From: a virus | Direction: 5' to 3' (one strand) | DNA length: 24,552 bases | UHGV virus genome: UHGV-1720524 | In this document: positions 6,886 through 21,196 of the stretch, piece by piece | How the letters are laid out: each line of letters opens with the position of its first letter | Numbering within the stretch: the first letter of the stretch is position 1 | Notes under the pieces: generated by a model | The model's input: the letters and a program-made list of their open reading frames with translations, nothing else | What the model was told of the DNA's origin: nothing | The model's database searches: none | Program-made: the position numbers and the translations under genes

Positions 6886-7176
6886 TTAGTGATTCAGACC
6901 GTTGCCGCGCCCGTCGAGAAAAACTTCCACGAGCAAGTCACGGGTATAAGTGCGCTCGATGCCGCGATGCAGATAAAGCCGTCCGCGTAAATTAGCTGAT
7001 GCAGTCCAGGTACCATCTTTGTGTTTGACCAGCATTCCTGGCATGACCGCACCGCGATTAACGGTCTGCGTTCCGTAATGTTGATGAACCATAAAAACTC
7101 CTGCCCGTAAGCTGGGCTGCTGAACATATAAAGACTTCTGCGCGTATTCAGGCGGTGGATGGCCGCCGGTTGTCAT
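6886..7176 (-). CDS. Hypothetical basic protein (96 aa), first gene downstream of pL (kil/cIII/N position); an internal start at MVHQ (7125) with a GGAG Shine-Dalgarno is also possible
   Basis: Longest ORF in the 6811-7200 gap; a 77-aa ORF in another frame (6894-7127) overlaps it, so the true coding frame is uncertain. Confidence 0.35.
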   Translation of the reverse strand: MTTGGHPPPEYAQKSLYVQQPSLRAGVFMVHQHYGTQTVNRGAVMPGMLVKHKDGTWTASANLRGRLYLHRGIERTYTRDLLVEVFLDGRGNGLNH

Positions 7177-7369
7177 AACTAAGCCGCCTCGTTGAAGCGA
7201 CTAAGGTATGAAATGTTGAGTTGATTTCAGCTGGTCACACCGACGTTCACGCGTCCGTTTCATCCCTCGCACTACCCGAAGCCTGCTGAAATTCAAGCTG
7301 CGGATCTAAGCGGTCATCGCAACGGTGAAACAGGTGGTTACCGTATCGTTGTGTCGTTGCGATGAATTT

Positions 7370-7436
7370 ATTTAAAACTATAGTTGTTTTATCGTCAACA
7401 ACAAAAGTTGTTTTATCGGTTGTTTTAAATATAACT
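7370..7436 (-). promoter_or_regulatory. pL promoter with OL operator repeats
   Basis: On the minus strand GTTGTTGACGATAAAACAACTATAGTTTTAAAT (-35 TTGACG, 17-nt spacer, -10 TTAAAT) is nearly identical to the pR module at 9168-9200; surrounded by AACAAC-N4-GTTGTT dyads. Confidence 0.6.
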
Positions 7437-7536
7437 GGTTGTATTTAGGATGGATTTATTTTGTGACTTGCATCGCATAGCGATAACTGAAGTGAGGTCG
7501 TGGTGGTTTTTTGAACGGTGTGTGATGAGGGGAGGG

Positions 7537-7569
7537 CAAAATAAAACCCGGCACGGTGGCCGGGTTTAG
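7537..7569 (-). terminator. Intrinsic terminator ending the immunity-region transcript (tIMM-like)
   Basis: On the minus strand CCCGGC-CACCGT-GCCGGG stem-loop followed by TTTTATTTT, about 75 bp past the stop of the 147-aa gene. Confidence 0.65.
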
Positions 7570-7641
7570 ATGATTGGTTAAGAGCGAGGGTAATGGGGAA
7601 TGAAAAATCGCTTTACCTAATGCAAGGGTGCGAGCATTTTC

Positions 7642-8085
7642 TTAAGCACTAAAGAAAAAGTACATTGATAGCTTATAAAGTCCTGTTCCTGCAGCGATGA
7701 TTGCTGGAACACCAAGCAATACCGCAAGCTTTGCGTCTGAAATCTTTCTATCGACAGCATCACTTGATGGCTTGTTTGTTAAGGATTCTTTTATAGAGTC
7801 CAGACGTGCAAGAATAGTTATCATATTTTTGTCGATAGCTTTAACGTCTGTTTTAAGTTCATCAACGTCTCGTTTGATATGAGCAACATCGGACTCCAGT
7901 TTTGCAACTTTTTCAGGCATGTTATCACTCCCAGACCCACTGCTACCACTTGATTGTAGCATGTCCCATCTTTTTCCAGATATACCTGCTAGCTGGGAAG
8001 ACGCACTGGAGTGCAAACAAAATGATTTTGCCGCCTTTGCAATTTTATCATTTAGGTTTGGAGCTTCGTAATAATCGTGTTTCAT
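7642..8085 (-). CDS. Coiled-coil protein with C-terminal transmembrane helix (147 aa; XhlA-like architecture), distal gene of the repressor-linked moron
   Basis: Long ORF in very AT-rich DNA; heptad-like KLESDVAHIKRDVDELKTDVKAIDKNMITILARLDSIKESL followed by hydrophobic LAVLLGVPAIIAAGTGLYKL; occupies the rexB-equivalent position. Confidence 0.55.
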   Translation of the reverse strand: MKHDYYEAPNLNDKIAKAAKSFCLHSSASSQLAGISGKRWDMLQSSGSSGSGSDNMPEKVAKLESDVAHIKRDVDELKTDVKAIDKNMITILARLDSIKESLTNKPSSDAVDRKISDAKLAVLLGVPAIIAAGTGLYKLSMYFFFSA

Positions 8086-8097
8086 AATTAATTACGA

Positions 8098-8361
8098 TTA
8101 GTTTGTTTTAGCTTTGTCATGCTGGTCGCGAATGAAGTCAGCCAATTTAAGCATCAATTCTTCGGGCATTCTAATGGTTGCAATGTTGTACTTTATGTTC
8201 TCAACATCGTCACTTTCATCAACAGGCCATTCAGTTACATTATGAAAAAAAGAAATTGAACCTAGGCGCTGAGAGCCGTCACCAAACGAAGAGTAGCCAA
8301 ACGCGTCGGCGTATGCATCGACACAGTTATTTGATTTTTTAACAAGTGTTTTATTACTCAT
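8098..8361 (-). CDS. Small protein (87 aa) with C-terminal ribbon-helix-helix-like segment, proximal gene of the repressor-linked moron
   Basis: ORF with GGAAAGG Shine-Dalgarno, 82 bp downstream of the repressor stop; YNIATIRMPEELMLKLADFIRDQ resembles a beta-strand/helix RHH motif; AT-rich. Confidence 0.5.
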   Translation of the reverse strand: MSNKTLVKKSNNCVDAYADAFGYSSFGDGSQRLGSISFFHNVTEWPVDESDDVENIKYNIATIRMPEELMLKLADFIRDQHDKAKTN

Positions 8362-9139: not shown

Positions 9140-9210
9140 AATGTACAACCAAGGTTTTATTTCATCAAACGAAAATGGTTGTTGACTAAAAACAACCATA
9201 GTTTTAATCT
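9140..9210 (+). promoter_or_regulatory. OR operators with pR (and divergent pRM) region
   Basis: TTGACT at 9172-9177, 17-nt spacer, TAATCT at 9195-9200; 9-bp inverted repeat ATGGTTGTT / AACAACCAT overlapping the promoter; sits between the divergent repressor and cro-like genes. Confidence 0.6.
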
Positions 9211-9468: not shown

Positions 9469-9490
9469 ATTTCCATTTCACGCTCTTTAA

Positions 9491-9499
9491 CAATAAGCA
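9491..9499 (+). promoter_or_regulatory. boxA-like element (CGCTCTTTA) in the nutR position
   Basis: 9-mer matching the lambdoid boxA consensus CGCTCTT(T)A, located between cro and the cII-position gene; no obvious boxB hairpin nearby. Confidence 0.35.
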
Positions 9500-9537
9500 A
9501 TCAACTTAACAGTCAATTCAAACTAAAGGAGTCAATT

Positions 9538-13742: not shown

Positions 13743-13964
13743 ATGTCAACGATAAGCAGAGGTTTGAAAATGAAATCACAATCACCAGTGCAGCATGAAG
13801 TTAACATCGACGGCAAAGAGTATGTTGTCACAGTAGTCCAAACCGGCAAGTCAACGTGGAGGGCATGGGGAGATTCCTGGGGGCGCCATATAGTCGAAAC
13901 AGGTTCTAGCGAACATAGCGCGCTTTCTCATTGGAAAGCAAAAGCTTTAGTTATGAATGGGTAG
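13743..13964 (+). CDS. Hypothetical protein (73 aa; may start at MKSQSP, 13770)
   Basis: ORF followed by a hairpin plus T-run. Confidence 0.4.
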   Translation: MSTISRGLKMKSQSPVQHEVNIDGKEYVVTVVQTGKSTWRAWGDSWGRHIVETGSSEHSALSHWKAKALVMNG

Positions 13965-13987
13965 CGCGGAAACTTTGAAGGTATAAT

Positions 13988-14013
13988 CCCCTCAAATAAT
14001 CGAGGGGGTTTTT
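13988..14013 (+). terminator. Hairpin plus T-run directly upstream of the moron ATG (terminator and/or Shine-Dalgarno-sequestering structure)
   Basis: CCCCTC-AAATAATC-GAGGGG followed by GTTTTT and then ATG at 14014; the 3' arm GAGGGGG is also the only Shine-Dalgarno for that gene; TATAAT at 13982-13987 sits just upstream. Confidence 0.45.
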
Positions 14014-14523
14014 ATGTCTGGTTGGGATAACGGTATAGATGCAGTTTCTGCGATTGCAGCTATCGCATCTGCGGTAGCAACTTATTTAGCATGGCGATCC
14101 TCAGAAGCTAGCAGGGCCACATCCGAAAAAGCTTTGCAGTTGCAAGGAAAGCAGTATTTGTACGAGACATTAAAAGCTTGCGCTGAGAGAGCGAATTCAT
14201 ACTCAAAAGGAAAGAAAGGGGCTGACTGGAGCTTTCATGACGCAGCCAATATTGTTCGATGTTTGAACATGGCAATGGGGAGCATAATAAATTACTCAGA
14301 TACCAACAATCAGGATGCAATGAAAGGTCTGAAGCAATTCTTTATTAGCCAATTAAACATGGAGCTTTTTGAAGAGCTCAACTATGAGGTTGGGCCTGAT
14401 GCCTTCTTTCACGGAGAGGAGCTAACCAGCATGACGAGCGATATTTACTCGCAGTGGTTAAACATTATTTCATTCTTTAACCTCATGATTGTCACAGATG
14501 ATGACCTCGCCGATGAAACATAG
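14014..14523 (+). CDS. Membrane-anchored protein of unknown function (169 aa), nin-region moron
   Basis: N-terminal hydrophobic helix IDAVSAIAAIASAVATYLAW; lower GC than flanking phage genes; bracketed by the hairpin upstream and a ~190-bp non-coding gap downstream. Confidence 0.55.
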   Translation: MSGWDNGIDAVSAIAAIASAVATYLAWRSSEASRATSEKALQLQGKQYLYETLKACAERANSYSKGKKGADWSFHDAANIVRCLNMAMGSIINYSDTNNQDAMKGLKQFFISQLNMELFEELNYEVGPDAFFHGEELTSMTSDIYSQWLNIISFFNLMIVTDDDLADET

Positions 14524-14710
14524 CTTGATTGATTTTCCATAATCAACCCGCCATAATCATGTCATCGGAGCCTGAACAACTCCGGTGACTTCTGCGCTAA
14601 ACGGGGACGTTTATGCGCACATACAATCCAAACTCACTTCTCCCGTCACAGATGCAGAAATGCACCTGCGATTTTTTGTATTCTGCGTTTTACCTCTACG
14701 GAGGTGAAGC

Positions 14711-15166
14711 GTGAACCTCCCACAAGACGGCATCAAACTACATCGCGGCAACTTCACCGCTATCGGCCAGCAGATCCAGCCTTATCTGGAGGACGGAAAA
14801 TGCTTTCGCATGGTGCTTAAACCGTGGCGTGAGAAACGCAGTCTTTCCCAGAATGCACTCAGCCACATGTGGTACAGCGAAATCAGTGAATACCTCATCA
14901 GCAGGGGTAAAACGTTCGCCACTCCAGCTTGGGTAAAAGATGCTCTCAAACACACATATCTCGGTTATGAAACCAAAGACCTGGTTGATGTCGTAACCGG
15001 TGATATCACCACTATCCAGTCGTTACGCCATACCTCCGACCTTGATACCGGAGAGATGTATGTCTTCCTGTGTAAGGTTGAAGCCTGGGCGATGAATATT
15101 GGCTGCCACCTGACTATTCCGCAGAGCTGCGAGTTCCAGCTGCTGCGTGATAAGCAGGAGGCGTAA
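14711..15166 (+). CDS. ninB: NinB-family recombination protein (GTG start), 151 aa
   Basis: [21 protein letters not shown] resembles the NinB RSLDQN...W motif as recalled; position upstream of ninE/rusA/Q. Confidence 0.65.
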
Positions 15167-15336
15167 TGGCTACACCGCTTATTCGTGTCATGAACGGACA
15201 CATCTACAAAGTACCAAATCGTCGTAAGCGTAAGCCTGAGCTGAAACCATCCGAAATACCAACACTGCTCGGATATACCGCCAGCCTGGTTGATAAAAAA
15301 TGGTTGCGACTGGCAGCTAGGAGGAATCATGGCTGA
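15166..15336 (+). CDS. ninE: NinE-like small basic protein (56 aa)
   Basis: Hand translation [56 protein letters not shown]; stop/start overlaps on both sides; below the track cutoff. Confidence 0.5.
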   Translation: MATPLIRVMNGHIYKVPNRRKRKPELKPSEIPTLLGYTASLVDKKWLRLAARRNHG

Positions 15337-15619
15337 TTTGAGAAAAGCAGCGCGTGGTCGGGAATGCCAGGTAAGAATCCCTGGCGTATGTAATGGCAAT
15401 CCTGAAACGTCTGTACTGGCACATATCCGGCTGGCTGGATTGTGCGGTACCGGTATCAAACCGCCAGACCTGATTGCCACCATTGCATGTTCTGCCTGTC
15501 ACGACGAGATCGACCGTCGCACGCATTTTGTTGACGCTGGATATGCAAAAGAATGCGCGCTGGAAGGTATGGCGAGAACGCAGGTTATCTGGCTGAAAGA
15601 GGGGGTAATTAAGGCGTGA
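15330..15619 (+). CDS. ybcO: DUF1364 / YbcO-like Cys-rich protein (96 aa from [11 protein letters not shown])
   Basis: [30 protein letters not shown]...[11 protein letters not shown] resembles DLP12 YbcO as recalled; AGGAGG Shine-Dalgarno before the MADL start. Confidence 0.6.
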
Positions 15620-15978
15620 ATACCTACAATATCACATTACCCTGGCCGCCGAGCAATAATCGCTATTACCGCCATAATCGCGGGCGCACGCACATCAGCG
15701 CAGAGGGGCAGGCATACCGCGAAAACGTCGCCCGAATCATTAAAAACGCAATGCTGGATATCGGCCTGGCTATGCCTGTGAAAATCCGCATTGAGTGTCA
15801 CATGCCGGATCGCCGTCGCCGTGACCTGGATAATCTACAAAAGGCCGCTTTTGACGCACTCACCAAAGCAGGTTTCTGGCTGGATGATGCTCAGGTCGTT
15901 GATTACCGCGTTGTGAAGATGCCGGTTGTCAAAGGTGGAAAGCTGGAACTGACCATCACTGAACAGGGAGATGAATGA
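15616..15978 (+). CDS. rusA: Holliday junction resolvase RusA (120 aa)
   Basis: [91 protein letters not shown]... matches RusA from memory. Confidence 0.92.
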
Positions 15979-16115
15979 TGTTTGAGTTTTATATGGCAGA
16001 ACTTCTTCGCCACCGCTGGATGCGCCTGCGCTTATATCGTTTCCCCGGTTCTGTTTTGACCGATTACCGAATACTGAAGAATTACGCCAAAACACTGACA
16101 GGAGCAGGAGTATGA
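15975..16115 (+). CDS. ylcG: YlcG-like small protein (about 46 aa)
   Basis: Hand translation [46 protein letters not shown]; ATGA overlap with the rusA stop; below the track cutoff. Confidence 0.5.
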
Positions 16116-16200
16116 AGTCAGAGATAACAATCAACTAATACTGTTTTGTTGATTTTTGCTTGTAATTGGCGTTCTGGTCTGAGTTTTGTGGAGTAAGTTG

Positions 16201-16584
16201 ATGCGTGATATTCAGATGGTTCTTGAGCGTTGGGGAGCGTGGGCGGCTAATAATCATGAAGATGTGACCTGGTCGTCCATTGCCGCCGGTTTTAAGGGAT
16301 TAATTCCTTCAAAAGTAAAATCTCGCCCACAATGTTGTGACGATGACGCGATGATCATTTGCGGGTGCATGGCCCGTCTGAAAAAGAACAACAGCGATTT
16401 GCACGATTTATTAGTAGATTATTATGTAGTCGGTATGACATTCATGTCACTGGCAGGTAAGCATTGCTGCTCTGATGGTTATATCGGGAAAAGGTTACAA
16501 AAGGCTGAGGGCATAATTGAAGGGATGTTAATGGCATTAGATATCCGGTTAGAGATGGATATCGTTGTTAATAACTCTAATTAA
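16201..16584 (+). CDS. quuD: Late-gene antiterminator Q (QuuD/phage 82 type), 127 aa from [11 protein letters not shown]
   Basis: [71 protein letters not shown]... matches DLP12 QuuD as recalled; the track ORF starts 15 nt earlier. Confidence 0.85.
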
Positions 16585-19738: not shown

Positions 19739-21196
19739 ATGAATACATCTCATGTAAGAGTTGTTACTCATATGTGTGGGTTCCTGGTTTGGCTCTATAG
19801 TCTTTCAATGTTGCCACCAATGGTTGTAGCATTGTTTTATAAAGAAAAAAGCCTGTTCGTTTTCTTTATAACTTTCGTTATATTTTTTTGCATTGGTGGC
19901 GGAGCGTGGTATACAACTAAGAAATCTGGCATTCAATTACGTACCCGTGATGGGTTTATTATAATTGTAATGTTTTGGATTTTGTTTTCTGTTATTAGTG
20001 CATTCCCTTTATGGATTGACTCAGAACTTAATTTAACGTTCATTGATGCTCTGTTTGAAGGGGTTTCTGGAATAACAACAACAGGAGCAACTGTAATTGA
20101 TGATGTTAGTTCATTACCTCGGGCATATTTGTACTATCGGTCACAGTTAAATTTTATAGGTGGTTTAGGAGTTATTGTTCTGGCGGTTGCTGTATTGCCA
20201 TTATTGGGTATTGGTGGTGCAAAGCTTTATCAGTCAGAAATGCCGGGGCCATTTAAGGATGACAAACTCACTCCCCGCCTGGCCGATACGTCACGGACAC
20301 TGTGGATAACTTATTCTTTATTAGGTATTGCTTGTATTGTCTGTTATAGACTTGCAGGAATGCCTTTGTTTGATGCTATTTGTCACGGGATTTCCACAGT
20401 TTCGCTTGGTGGTTTCTCAACTCATAGCGAGAGTATCGGATATTTTAATAACTATTTGGTTGAGCTGGTGGCTGGTTCTTTTTCCCTGCTATCGGCTTTC
20501 AACTTCACTCTTTGGTATATTGTTATTAGCAGGAAAACGATAAAACCTTTAATCAGAGATATTGAACTTCGTTTCTTTCTGTTAATAGCCTTAGGGGTGA
20601 TCATTGTTACCTCTTTCCAGGTCTGGCATATAGGTATGTATGACTTGCATGGAAGTTTTATTCATTCGTTTTTTCTTGCCAGCTCCATGCTCACTGATAA
20701 TGGTTTAGCTACGCAGGATTATGCAAGTTGGCCCACGCACACGATAGTGTTTTTGCTGTTGTCAAGTTTCTTTGGGGGATGTATAGGTTCAACTTGTGGT
20801 GGAATTAAGTCACTTCGATTTCTTATACTTTTCAAACAAAGCAAACACGAGATAAATCAGCTTTCTCATCCCAGAGCGTTGTTGAGTGTAAATGTAGGAG
20901 GGAAGATAGTTACAGATCGTGTAATGAGGTCTGTATGGAGTTTCTTTTTTCTTTATACTCTCTTCACGGTGTTTTTTATACTGGTGTTAAATGGTATGGG
21001 ATATGATTTTCTTACATCATTTGCAACAGTGGCTGCATGTATTAATAATATGGGATTAGGTTTTGGGGCTACTGCATCGTCATTCGGAGTGCTTAATGAC
21101 ATTGCAAAATGTTTAATGTGCATAGCTATGATTCTTGGTCGCCTTGAAATTTATCCTGTTATTATATTGTTTTCAGGTTTTTTTTGGCGCTCCTAA
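19739..21196 (+). CDS. trkG: TrkG/TrkH-family K+ uptake membrane protein (485 aa from MNTSHVRVV), AT-rich moron
   Basis: Polytopic membrane protein matching Rac-prophage TrkG as recalled; low GC; preceded by an AT-rich region with TATAAT-like boxes. The track ORF starts at an upstream TTG. Confidence 0.88.
   Translation: MNTSHVRVVTHMCGFLVWLYSLSMLPPMVVALFYKEKSLFVFFITFVIFFCIGGGAWYTTKKSGIQLRTRDGFIIIVMFWILFSVISAFPLWIDSELNLTFIDALFEGVSGITTTGATVIDDVSSLPRAYLYYRSQLNFIGGLGVIVLAVAVLPLLGIGGAKLYQSEMPGPFKDDKLTPRLADTSRTLWITYSLLGIACIVCYRLAGMPLFDAICHGISTVSLGGFSTHSESIGYFNNYLVELVAGSFSLLSAFNFTLWYIVISRKTIKPLIRDIELRFFLLIALGVIIVTSFQVWHIGMYDLHGSFIHSFFLASSMLTDNGLATQDYASWPTHTIVFLLLSSFFGGCIGSTCGGIKSLRFLILFKQSKHEINQLSHPRALLSVNVGGKIVTDRVMRSVWSFFFLYTLFTVFFILVLNGMGYDFLTSFATVAACINNMGLGFGATASSFGVLNDIAKCLMCIAMILGRLEIYPVIILFSGFFWRS

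Follow-up and report, generated by a model that had tools for sequence, protein, structure and literature searches.

The subject of this study is ORF169, an open reading frame (ORF) for a protein of 169 amino acids, together with the short element that directly precedes it in a viral DNA of 24,552 nucleotides (nt) (UHGV virus genome UHGV-1720524; the whole of this stretch is referred to here as the window). In the reading that we favor and consider reasonably probable, ORF169 is an accessory cargo gene lodged in a variable slot within the nin region of a defective lambdoid prophage, where it lies behind a portable element resembling the tR2 terminator of phage lambda. An earlier note on this DNA had taken ORF169 for a self-contained, independently transcribed gene. 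That picture was borne out only in part, since the signals upstream of the gene form a junction common to at least seven gene families, ORF169 has no terminator of its own, and its -10-like hexamer is accompanied by neither a -35 element nor an extended -10 TG. While the ORF169 product is one more uncharacterized accessory protein of phages, the more useful result is, in our view, that a hairpin that looked private to this gene is a common junction.

Anatomy of the Element Preceding ORF169

The element spans about 35 nt and consists of a TATAAT hexamer, a C-rich arm, a variable loop, a G-rich arm, a U-run and the start codon of the following gene in the context ATG(TC); the positions of these parts in the window are collected in Table 1. 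The pattern CCCCTC-N6-10-GAGGGG is present once in the window, whereas 0.01 copies would be expected by chance. Five of the nine base pairs (bp) of the stem are G-C pairs, and the isolated hairpin has a computed free energy of -13.7 to -14.2 kcal/mol. The GAGGGGG sequence is the sole purine-rich stretch upstream of the ORF169 start codon, and in RNA begun upstream of the element it is predicted to be almost completely sequestered (paired with a probability above 0.99; unpaired probability about 0.003), while its unpaired probability rises to 0.17 in an RNA begun at position 13994. Sequence and folding thus confirm the previous description of a CCCCTC/GAGGGG hairpin with a T-run, whose 3′ arm holds the only Shine-Dalgarno sequence of the gene.

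When the + strand between pR and Q was scanned for terminators, the hairpin in front of ORF169 emerged as the best terminator-like site. It is therefore plausible that the hairpin terminates those pR transcripts that are not antiterminated, and the proposal that read-through transcripts from pR would be terminated or translationally masked finds backing in the computed folds, in which a plausible intrinsic terminator sequesters the Shine-Dalgarno sequence. Searches of Rfam gave no match at the gathering threshold; the one match obtained, to a microRNA, is a chance one (E = 0.45). A boxB or nut site was considered as well and was ruled out, the loops being 5-10 nt long and variable.

Occurrence of the Element in Other Phages

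Copies of the form TATAATCCCCTC-N6-10-GAGGGG were found in at least 120 contigs of the IMG/VR database, in which the element stands directly before at least seven unrelated gene families. Homologues of the theta subunit of DNA polymerase III (pol III) are the commonest cargo; the others are a 60-amino-acid protein (phrog_16632), the ORF169 family, phrog_3230, a signal-peptide protein (phrog_36291), a membrane protein of 190 amino acids and several further proteins. Among the element copies listed, there are 44 different loops. The distance from the 3′ arm to the start codon is 5-8 nt in most copies, the upstream gene's stop codon often lies just 2-5 nt ahead of TATAAT, and the following gene begins with ATGTC in 50 of 76 distinct copies, which stem from four unrelated families. 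Left flanks are unrelated among the relatives of ORF169 that share 50-88% protein identity with it (from Enterobacter, E. coli, Phytobacter and Kluyvera), yet these relatives retain TATAAT, the C-rich arm, a differing loop and the G-rich arm. Members of the MNWEF/MNWGF subfamily and the Phytobacter gene possess a separate Shine-Dalgarno sequence after the hairpin; hence, masking would be a property of some copies, including that of the window, and not of the ORF169 family as a whole.

Phage HK639 carries the same element at an equivalent map position (HM208537.1, 41560-41586; TATAATCCCCTC-AAATAACC-GAGGGGGTTTTATG), and its depositors annotated it as a terminator. There, it follows the replication, ren and eae genes and is itself followed by a 60-amino-acid gene, a theta gene, one gene of unknown function, a ylcH-like module and NinB. 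The upstream stop codon is 2 nt from TATAAT in HK639 but 17 nt from it in the window. Two copies of the element are present in locus L104 (IMG/VR contig 3300011723_000026), at about position 6950 and at 7527-7560. One of them precedes a gene for a signal-peptide protein, while the other, a complete palindrome (TATAATCCCCTC..GAGGGGATTATA), overlaps the TAA stop codon of a theta gene and faces a convergent gene; judged by its sequence and placement, this copy between convergent genes resembles a bidirectional terminator. No description of the element was found in the literature on the protein accession, the PHROG, the HK639 terminators and the "boundary sequences" of lambdoid phages.

Several of the called cargo proteins carry a spurious N-terminal extension beginning with MYNPL, which is nothing but the translated element (ATG TAT AAT CCC CTC), as seen in protein P0003, in locus L015 (3929-3973) and in L104 (at about 6950). 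Such an extension, an artefact of gene calling, can serve as a mark by which copies of the element are recognized.

Selection on Base Pairing in the Stem

The covariation of the stem was assessed exclusively in loci that had been retrieved by protein homology, a sample unbiased with respect to the element. Since a MAFFT alignment of the variants put the arms out of register, the pairs were tabulated from the individual folds. This set contains a double change from an A-U to a C-G pair, at the fifth position of the hexamer in the TATACT variants, a double change from a C-G to a U-A pair, and the insertion of one G-C pair. Furthermore, two independent C-to-T changes in the 5′ arm (L026, L028) retain G·U pairs, and they do so only in the RNA of the + strand, which argues for pairing in this RNA rather than for an operator in the DNA. 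Within the hexamer, the terminal AAT lies in the stem, and its bases covary with those opposite. Taken as a whole, the pattern of substitution indicates that pairing in the + strand RNA is under selection.

The Element as the Left Joint of a Cargo Slot

The position of the element relative to the breakpoints of homology is most readily seen when locus L030, which carries an ORF169-type cargo, is compared with locus L160, which carries a theta gene. Over 400 nt up to the element these loci are 93-96% identical; after it, their identity drops to about 33%. As judged from such alignments, the homology between phages breaks exactly at the element, which marks it as a crossover joint. On the right, the ylcH module marks the end of the cargo in eight of the ten contexts compared. 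The slot between these two boundaries holds ybcL-ybcM in K-12, two small genes in NZRM4165, a theta gene in HK639, and Rha, with a PD-lambda-1 gene nearby, in PhiR26_1. The prophage DLP12 thus has ybcL-ybcM where the window has ORF64, the element and ORF169, and the block that follows in the window (14529-16584) corresponds to the ylcH-ybcN-ninE-ybcO-rusA-ylcG-quuD block of DLP12 and phage 82 (X92588).

ORF64, the small gene on the left flank, keeps its length and the position of its stop codon at nucleotide identities of 90% (L028) and 71% (L121). In L121, ORF64 is followed by the element and then by a phrog_3230 gene instead of ORF169. A two-gene cassette formed by ORF169 and the longer, 73-amino-acid version of ORF64 (ORF73) was considered and could be ruled out, as ORF64 also occurs with other cargo. 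ORF64 was scanned in this 73-amino-acid version and matched no PHROG or Pfam family.

Two further contexts deserve mention. In Kluyvera sichuanensis (L015, 4465-4620), the ORF169 homologue is not followed by a ylcH module; a perfect palindrome resembling a LexA box (TACTGTTTATACATACAGTA) and an umuD-like gene are found there instead. In PhiR26_1 (L003, 243-1745), the same inter-module region contains, about 1.7 kilobases upstream of the ORF169 homologue and on the opposite strand, a PD-lambda-1 defence gene, which shows that defence cargo is collected in this region as well.

We propose that the slot is bounded on its left by a copy of the tR2-like element and on its right by the ylcH-ybcN module, and that recombination within the element and within the ylcH module would exchange the cargo between them. 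Homologous recombination could bring about such an exchange, given that many phages have the element in nearly identical form, and the swapping of cargo would account for the finding that ORF169 is rare, AT-rich and located behind different left flanks.

Comparison with Lambda tR2 and a Proposed Mode of Action

The tR2 site of phage lambda is an intrinsic terminator between ren and ninB and is among the terminators removed by nin deletions. A terminator of the tR2 type is expected to make the expression of Q dependent on antitermination. The element resembles tR2 in its position on the map, after replication and ren-type genes and before the NinB block, and in its layout, with an A/T-rich lead-in, a G+C stem, an 8-nt loop ending in TAATC and a TTTTTAT tail. 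Like terminators of this type, it has a G+C-rich stem-loop and a U-run on the transcribed strand, separates the replication genes of the pR operon from the ninB-Q block, and exhibits compensatory change. The stems themselves differ (CCCCTC/GAGGGG in the element, GGCCTGC/GCAGGCC in lambda tR2), and so does the arrangement of the gene that follows: in the window, the start codon abuts the U-run and the Shine-Dalgarno sequence is contained in the 3′ arm, whereas ninB of lambda starts 24 nt further on and has a Shine-Dalgarno sequence of its own. The conserved TATAAT and the recurrence before many genes are likewise features of the element that lambda tR2 does not share.

By analogy with tR2, the hairpin in the + strand RNA would stop pR transcription that has not been antiterminated, and the 3′ arm and the U-run would provide a standard ribosome-binding region to whichever gene follows. 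Termination at tR2 depends on the distance between the upstream stop codon and the stem: it is below 10% at 5 bp, ranges from 0.12 to 0.8 in a sequence-dependent manner at 17-18 bp, and reaches its maximum of about 0.9 beyond about 27-30 bp (PMC4824070). In most copies of the element, the stop codon is 5-8 nt from the stem, and we infer from this spacing an arrangement gated by translation, in which the ribosome finishing the upstream gene would block termination and open the Shine-Dalgarno sequence. The spacer in the window is 20 nt (13964 to 13985), a distance at which the terminating ribosome would not be expected to open the hairpin. The hairpin should consequently form more often here, terminating transcripts and masking the Shine-Dalgarno sequence, so that ORF169 would be expressed mainly from antiterminated read-through transcripts and, as its Shine-Dalgarno sequence is paired, would be translated at a low level.

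A junction of this type helps to explain the exchange of cargo in the nin region, and it provides a defined element of about 35 nt that can be tested as a terminator, as a ribosome-binding site and possibly as a promoter. It also bears on annotation: the MYNPL extensions on several cargo genes are spurious, ORF64 has been missed by the Prokaryotic Genome Annotation Pipeline (PGAP), which leaves this stretch empty in RefSeq, and the apparent gap before ybcN is a conserved regulatory module (see below).

Does the Hexamer Serve as a Promoter?

Several observations weigh against the reading of the element as a tR2-like terminator with cargo behind it. The scans of DNA for the element used fixed arm sequences, so that all copy counts are lower bounds, and the set of loci on which the covariation rests is the smaller one. 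Some copies have a poor U-run (ATTATT in L005, CATTAAAGG in L013), so that termination cannot be the sole function under selection. We infer termination, read-through and the efficiency of translation at ORF169, as well as the time of its expression, from sequence and computed folds. Concerning the read-through route, no intact N ORF was found in the window, where the stretch from oL to the kil-like gene was inspected; this prophage may have lost N, or antitermination may take place by another route. Finally, the hexamer is conserved beyond what the hairpin would require. Its TAT is invariant in all 15 variants of the ORF169-family set even though it is mostly unpaired, an invariance that base pairing does not explain, and the rare variants of the hexamer (TATACT, TAAAAT, TACAAT) retain the positions that are most important for sigma-70. 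Judged by these sequences, the conservation of the hexamer fits a -10 element better than it fits a terminator.

These last observations lead to the alternative that survives best, although we consider it doubtful: TATAAT would be a working -10 element of a sigma-70 promoter, from which transcripts start within the loop (at about 13994), lack the 5′ arm, and thereby escape termination and keep the Shine-Dalgarno sequence free, whereas transcripts reading through from pR would be terminated or masked. On this view, ORF169 and the other cargo of the element would be insulated morons that are expressed while the prophage is repressed. A scan that did not require the hexamer nevertheless recovered TATAAT in 17 of 19 start-proximal copies, with TAAAAT as one related exception, and changes are confined to the less critical positions. 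The TAT stays constant while the loops vary freely, and the 6-7 nt that separate the hexamer from the first base of the loop in all variants would suit a start site in the loop, as would the computed gain in accessibility of the Shine-Dalgarno sequence, from 0.003 to 0.17, in an RNA begun there. The copy in Phytobacter reads TGaTATAAT, an extended -10 element, and in PhiR26_1 and PhiR5_1 the ORF169 homologue stands behind a strong terminator and an AT-rich spacer.

Against this interpretation speaks the lack of a companion to the hexamer. Among 65 distinct copies of the element, the best match to a -35 sequence averages 2.62 of six positions as compared to 2.42 at random control positions, and not one of these 65 copies has the TG of an extended -10 element. 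The conserved unit begins with the hexamer, and nothing upstream of it is portable. At ORF169 itself, the promoter scan made no call, owing to a poor -35 sequence (three of six matches) and the missing TG. The TATAAT that the earlier note had singled out is thus indeed present upstream of ORF169, but it occurs at chance frequency in the window (12 copies, 11.9 expected), and no promoter was called at it. In addition, the discriminator is C-rich, the AAT of the hexamer is bound up with the stem (the whole hexamer is stem in the palindromic copies), the commonest cargo, the theta homologue of pol III, is a replication-type gene rather than one of lysogenic conversion, and the depositors of HK639 annotated a terminator only. 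We are equally hesitant about the more modest proposition that a weak promoter without a -35 sequence is located at TATAAT.

One may also combine these functions and view the element as a portable adaptor for cargo in the lambdoid phages of enterobacteria, in which about 35 nt join a translation-gated terminator, a minimal promoter giving transcripts that begin in the loop and so escape termination and masking, and a patch of homology that permits in-frame exchange of cargo beginning with Met-Ser. ORF169 would be one of many genes insulated in this manner and would be expressed at a low level from the prophage. We judge this full combination to be unlikely. If the promoter reading were true, the element would represent a compact natural insulator for synthetic biology, and it would help to predict which prophage cargo is expressed in lysogens.

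A third interpretation sees in the element mainly a linker for recombination, that is, a "boundary sequence" for the exchange of modules between lambdoid phages, with neither the hairpin nor TATAAT having a regulatory role. It draws on the break of homology exactly at the element, on the occurrence of the same left flanks with different cargo and of the same cargo with different left flanks, and on the extension of the conserved unit into ATGTC. A linker, however, needs identity and could do without a stem, a U-run or constant spacing from the start codon, and the compensatory and G·U-preserving changes bespeak selection for pairing and not for identity. As the only role of the element, we therefore regard linkage as very improbable; as an additional one, it is compatible with a tR2-like terminator in front of exchangeable cargo. 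Least credible of all is the notion that the inverted repeat serves as an operator in the DNA, recognized by a regulator of phage or host and overlapping a promoter, for although some copies (L005, L104) contain a perfect palindrome of 11-12 bp and the repeat overlaps the -10-like hexamer, the changes in the 5′ arm of L026 and L028 break the palindrome of the DNA, loops of 5-10 nt alter the spacing of the half-sites, and a U-run follows the repeat in most copies.

The ORF169 Gene, Its Product and Its Family

The gene is real and is annotated in RefSeq, where its product in E. coli strain QDFD216 is labeled a hypothetical protein (WP_000017329.1). That it is richer in A+T than its neighbors was also borne out: its G+C content is 0.42-0.45, as compared to 0.51-0.58 upstream and about 0.50 downstream. 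Together with its sporadic distribution, the low G+C content agrees with an accessory insert of the nin region. A near-identical ORF169 cassette is present in 26 of 5426 complete E. coli genomes, and a distant allele is found in about 175 more.

Table 1. Features of the window around ORF169 (positions are those of the window).
Feature	Position	Strand	Description
ORF64	13770-13964	+	Small conserved gene of the left flank; Shine-Dalgarno sequence AGAGG 8 nt before ATG; stop codon 20 nt before the stem
TATAAT	13982-13987	+	Lone -10-like hexamer in the portable element; 13985-13987 within the stem
Hairpin AATCCCCTC/GAGGGGGTT	13985-14010	+	9-bp stem, 8-nt loop; putative tR2-like intrinsic-terminator element
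Shine-Dalgarno sequence GAGGGGG	14002-14008	+	Within the 3′ arm of the hairpin
T5 run (U-tract)	14009-14013	+	Abuts the ATG of ORF169
ORF169	14014-14523	+	Probable accessory cargo gene, phrog_1779, 169 amino acids; predicted to be all-helical with a weakly hydrophobic N-terminal helix
Promoter-like TTGATT-17-CATAAT	14529-14557	+	Start of the module, right edge of the cargo slot; putative -35/-10 marked at the corresponding site of phage 82 (X92588)
Inverted repeat TCATCGGAG-N9-CTCCGGTGA	14562-14588	+	"Possible regulator-binding site" according to the depositors of phage 82
ylcH/orf33 homologue	14613-14714	+	33 codons; stop codon overlaps the GTG start of ybcN; annotated in RefSeq and phage 82
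Second hairpin and T6 run	14646-14677	+	Inside ylcH; covarying
ybcN (NinB/Orf-like)	14711-15166	+	First gene of the conserved nin block

The statement that the protein belongs to no recognizable family is correct for Pfam, but phrog_1779 gives a full-length match to ORF169 (E = 2.5e-77), in which residues 3-167 align with positions 2-169 of a profile of 169. Neither Pfam, NCBIfam, PADLOC nor the sequences of the PDB yielded a match; the first three were searched with the protein and with relatives, and the PDB sequences with a profile. When 23 relatives of ORF169 were submitted to PADLOC, only stray matches with E values above 0.006 were returned, and these for three of the 23. The family is small and restricted to the Enterobacterales, with 29 clusters at 90% identity; a profile search of 1.84 billion representative sequences recovered 36 relatives, all of them within this same small family.

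The AlphaFold2 model of ORF169, with a confidence (predicted local distance difference test, pLDDT) of 69, contains helices only: a long one at the N-terminus and others that form a compact bundle. Searches with this model found generic helical bundles only, and the remote-homology and structure searches that had been called for were thus carried out without an informative match beyond phrog_1779. As to the proposed single transmembrane helix at the N-terminus, a helix is predicted there, but it is only marginally hydrophobic (best 19-residue Kyte-Doolittle mean of 1.74, over residues 8-26; unweighted Hessa sum of +4.3 kcal/mol), and the confidence of the model is low across residues 1-40 (pLDDT 41-53). 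The product is probably a small helical protein that is loosely attached to the inner membrane. A function in superinfection exclusion or defence, which had been described as frequent among insulated morons, received no backing from the PADLOC, Pfam, PDB and fold searches, which were negative or uninformative.

Genes of the ORF169 family are located downstream of lambdoid replication genes and are co-oriented with them in all contexts examined except one, a CPS-53-like element in Serratia. No conserved partner gene was found around the distant family members whose contexts were compared. Measured against the definition of a moron in the sense of Juhala and Hendrix, for which gene 15 of HK97 is an example (PMC3594210), ORF169 is moron-like in its sporadic presence, its deviant G+C content, its being a single small gene and its possible membrane protein. 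Unlike morons, it lies within the early operon and in the same orientation, it has no demonstrable promoter or terminator of its own, and the signals flanking it are common junction elements.

The ylcH-ybcN Module Downstream of ORF169

The 187 bp that separate ORF169 from ybcN (14524-14710) had been regarded as a non-coding gap of about 190 bp. They turned out to be a conserved module, in which a site resembling a promoter is followed by an inverted repeat and by the ylcH ORF with a second hairpin (Table 1). More than 3000 E. coli genomes carry this stretch, the DLP12 prophage of K-12 included, mostly at 82-94% identity, and so does phage 82. No terminator-like site was found between 14524 and 14645; the next one downstream is the hairpin inside ylcH. 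Four of its pairs show compensatory changes across eight loci, and its sequence and its position ahead of the nin block make it look like a terminator or an attenuator. The ylcH module with this hairpin occurs without ORF169 in more than 3000 genomes. From this distribution, we conclude that the stretch downstream of ORF169 belongs to the ylcH-ybcN module and that ORF169 is without a terminator of its own. In phage phi80, an inverted repeat (IR4) is annotated in the homologous stretch upstream of a ybcN-like gene.

The Prophage and Its Early-Right Operon

The window is 100% identical to DNA of E. coli strain QDFD216 (RefSeq) and represents a lambdoid prophage situated between ybhC and bioA, that is, at the attachment site of lambda. 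According to the annotation of locus L002, IS1 truncates the prophage after the gene for the small terminase (24485 onward), on which ground we consider it defective. The early-right operon has the order cro-like, YdaT-like, O, P, ren-like, several genes of the ea22 type, ORF268, the ORF169 region and then the nin block. The ORF169 region is followed by ylcH, ybcN (NinB-like), ninE, ybcO, rusA, ylcG and quuD, and then by a porin gene on the opposite strand. The placement of the ORF169 locus in the nin region is confirmed by this gene order. A boxA of consensus sequence (CGCTCTTTAACAA) lies downstream of cro (9481-9493). A put-type antiterminator RNA was considered for the stretch that separates cro from the gene after it and was rejected, as the spacer of 70 nt folds no better than shuffled sequences and contains the boxA instead.

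The prophage is a mosaic of DLP12-like and Rac-like parts, and in the annotation of L002 the lysis genes are followed by trkG and by a ynaK-like gene that is truncated (at about 19739-21196 of the window). Operator-like repeats at 7372-7416 pair with those at 9164-9207 (oL and oR), and the leader of pL contains a long hairpin (ATCGCAACG...CGTTGCGAT). These observations, like that of the boxA, come from an inspection of 7177-7641 and 9469-9537. The position of rexAB, between the repressor gene and oL, is occupied on the - strand (7642-8361) by two genes for proteins of 87 and 147 amino acids, which are candidates for expression from the prophage. The larger of these two proteins has a coiled-coil region and a hydrophobic helix at its C-terminus.

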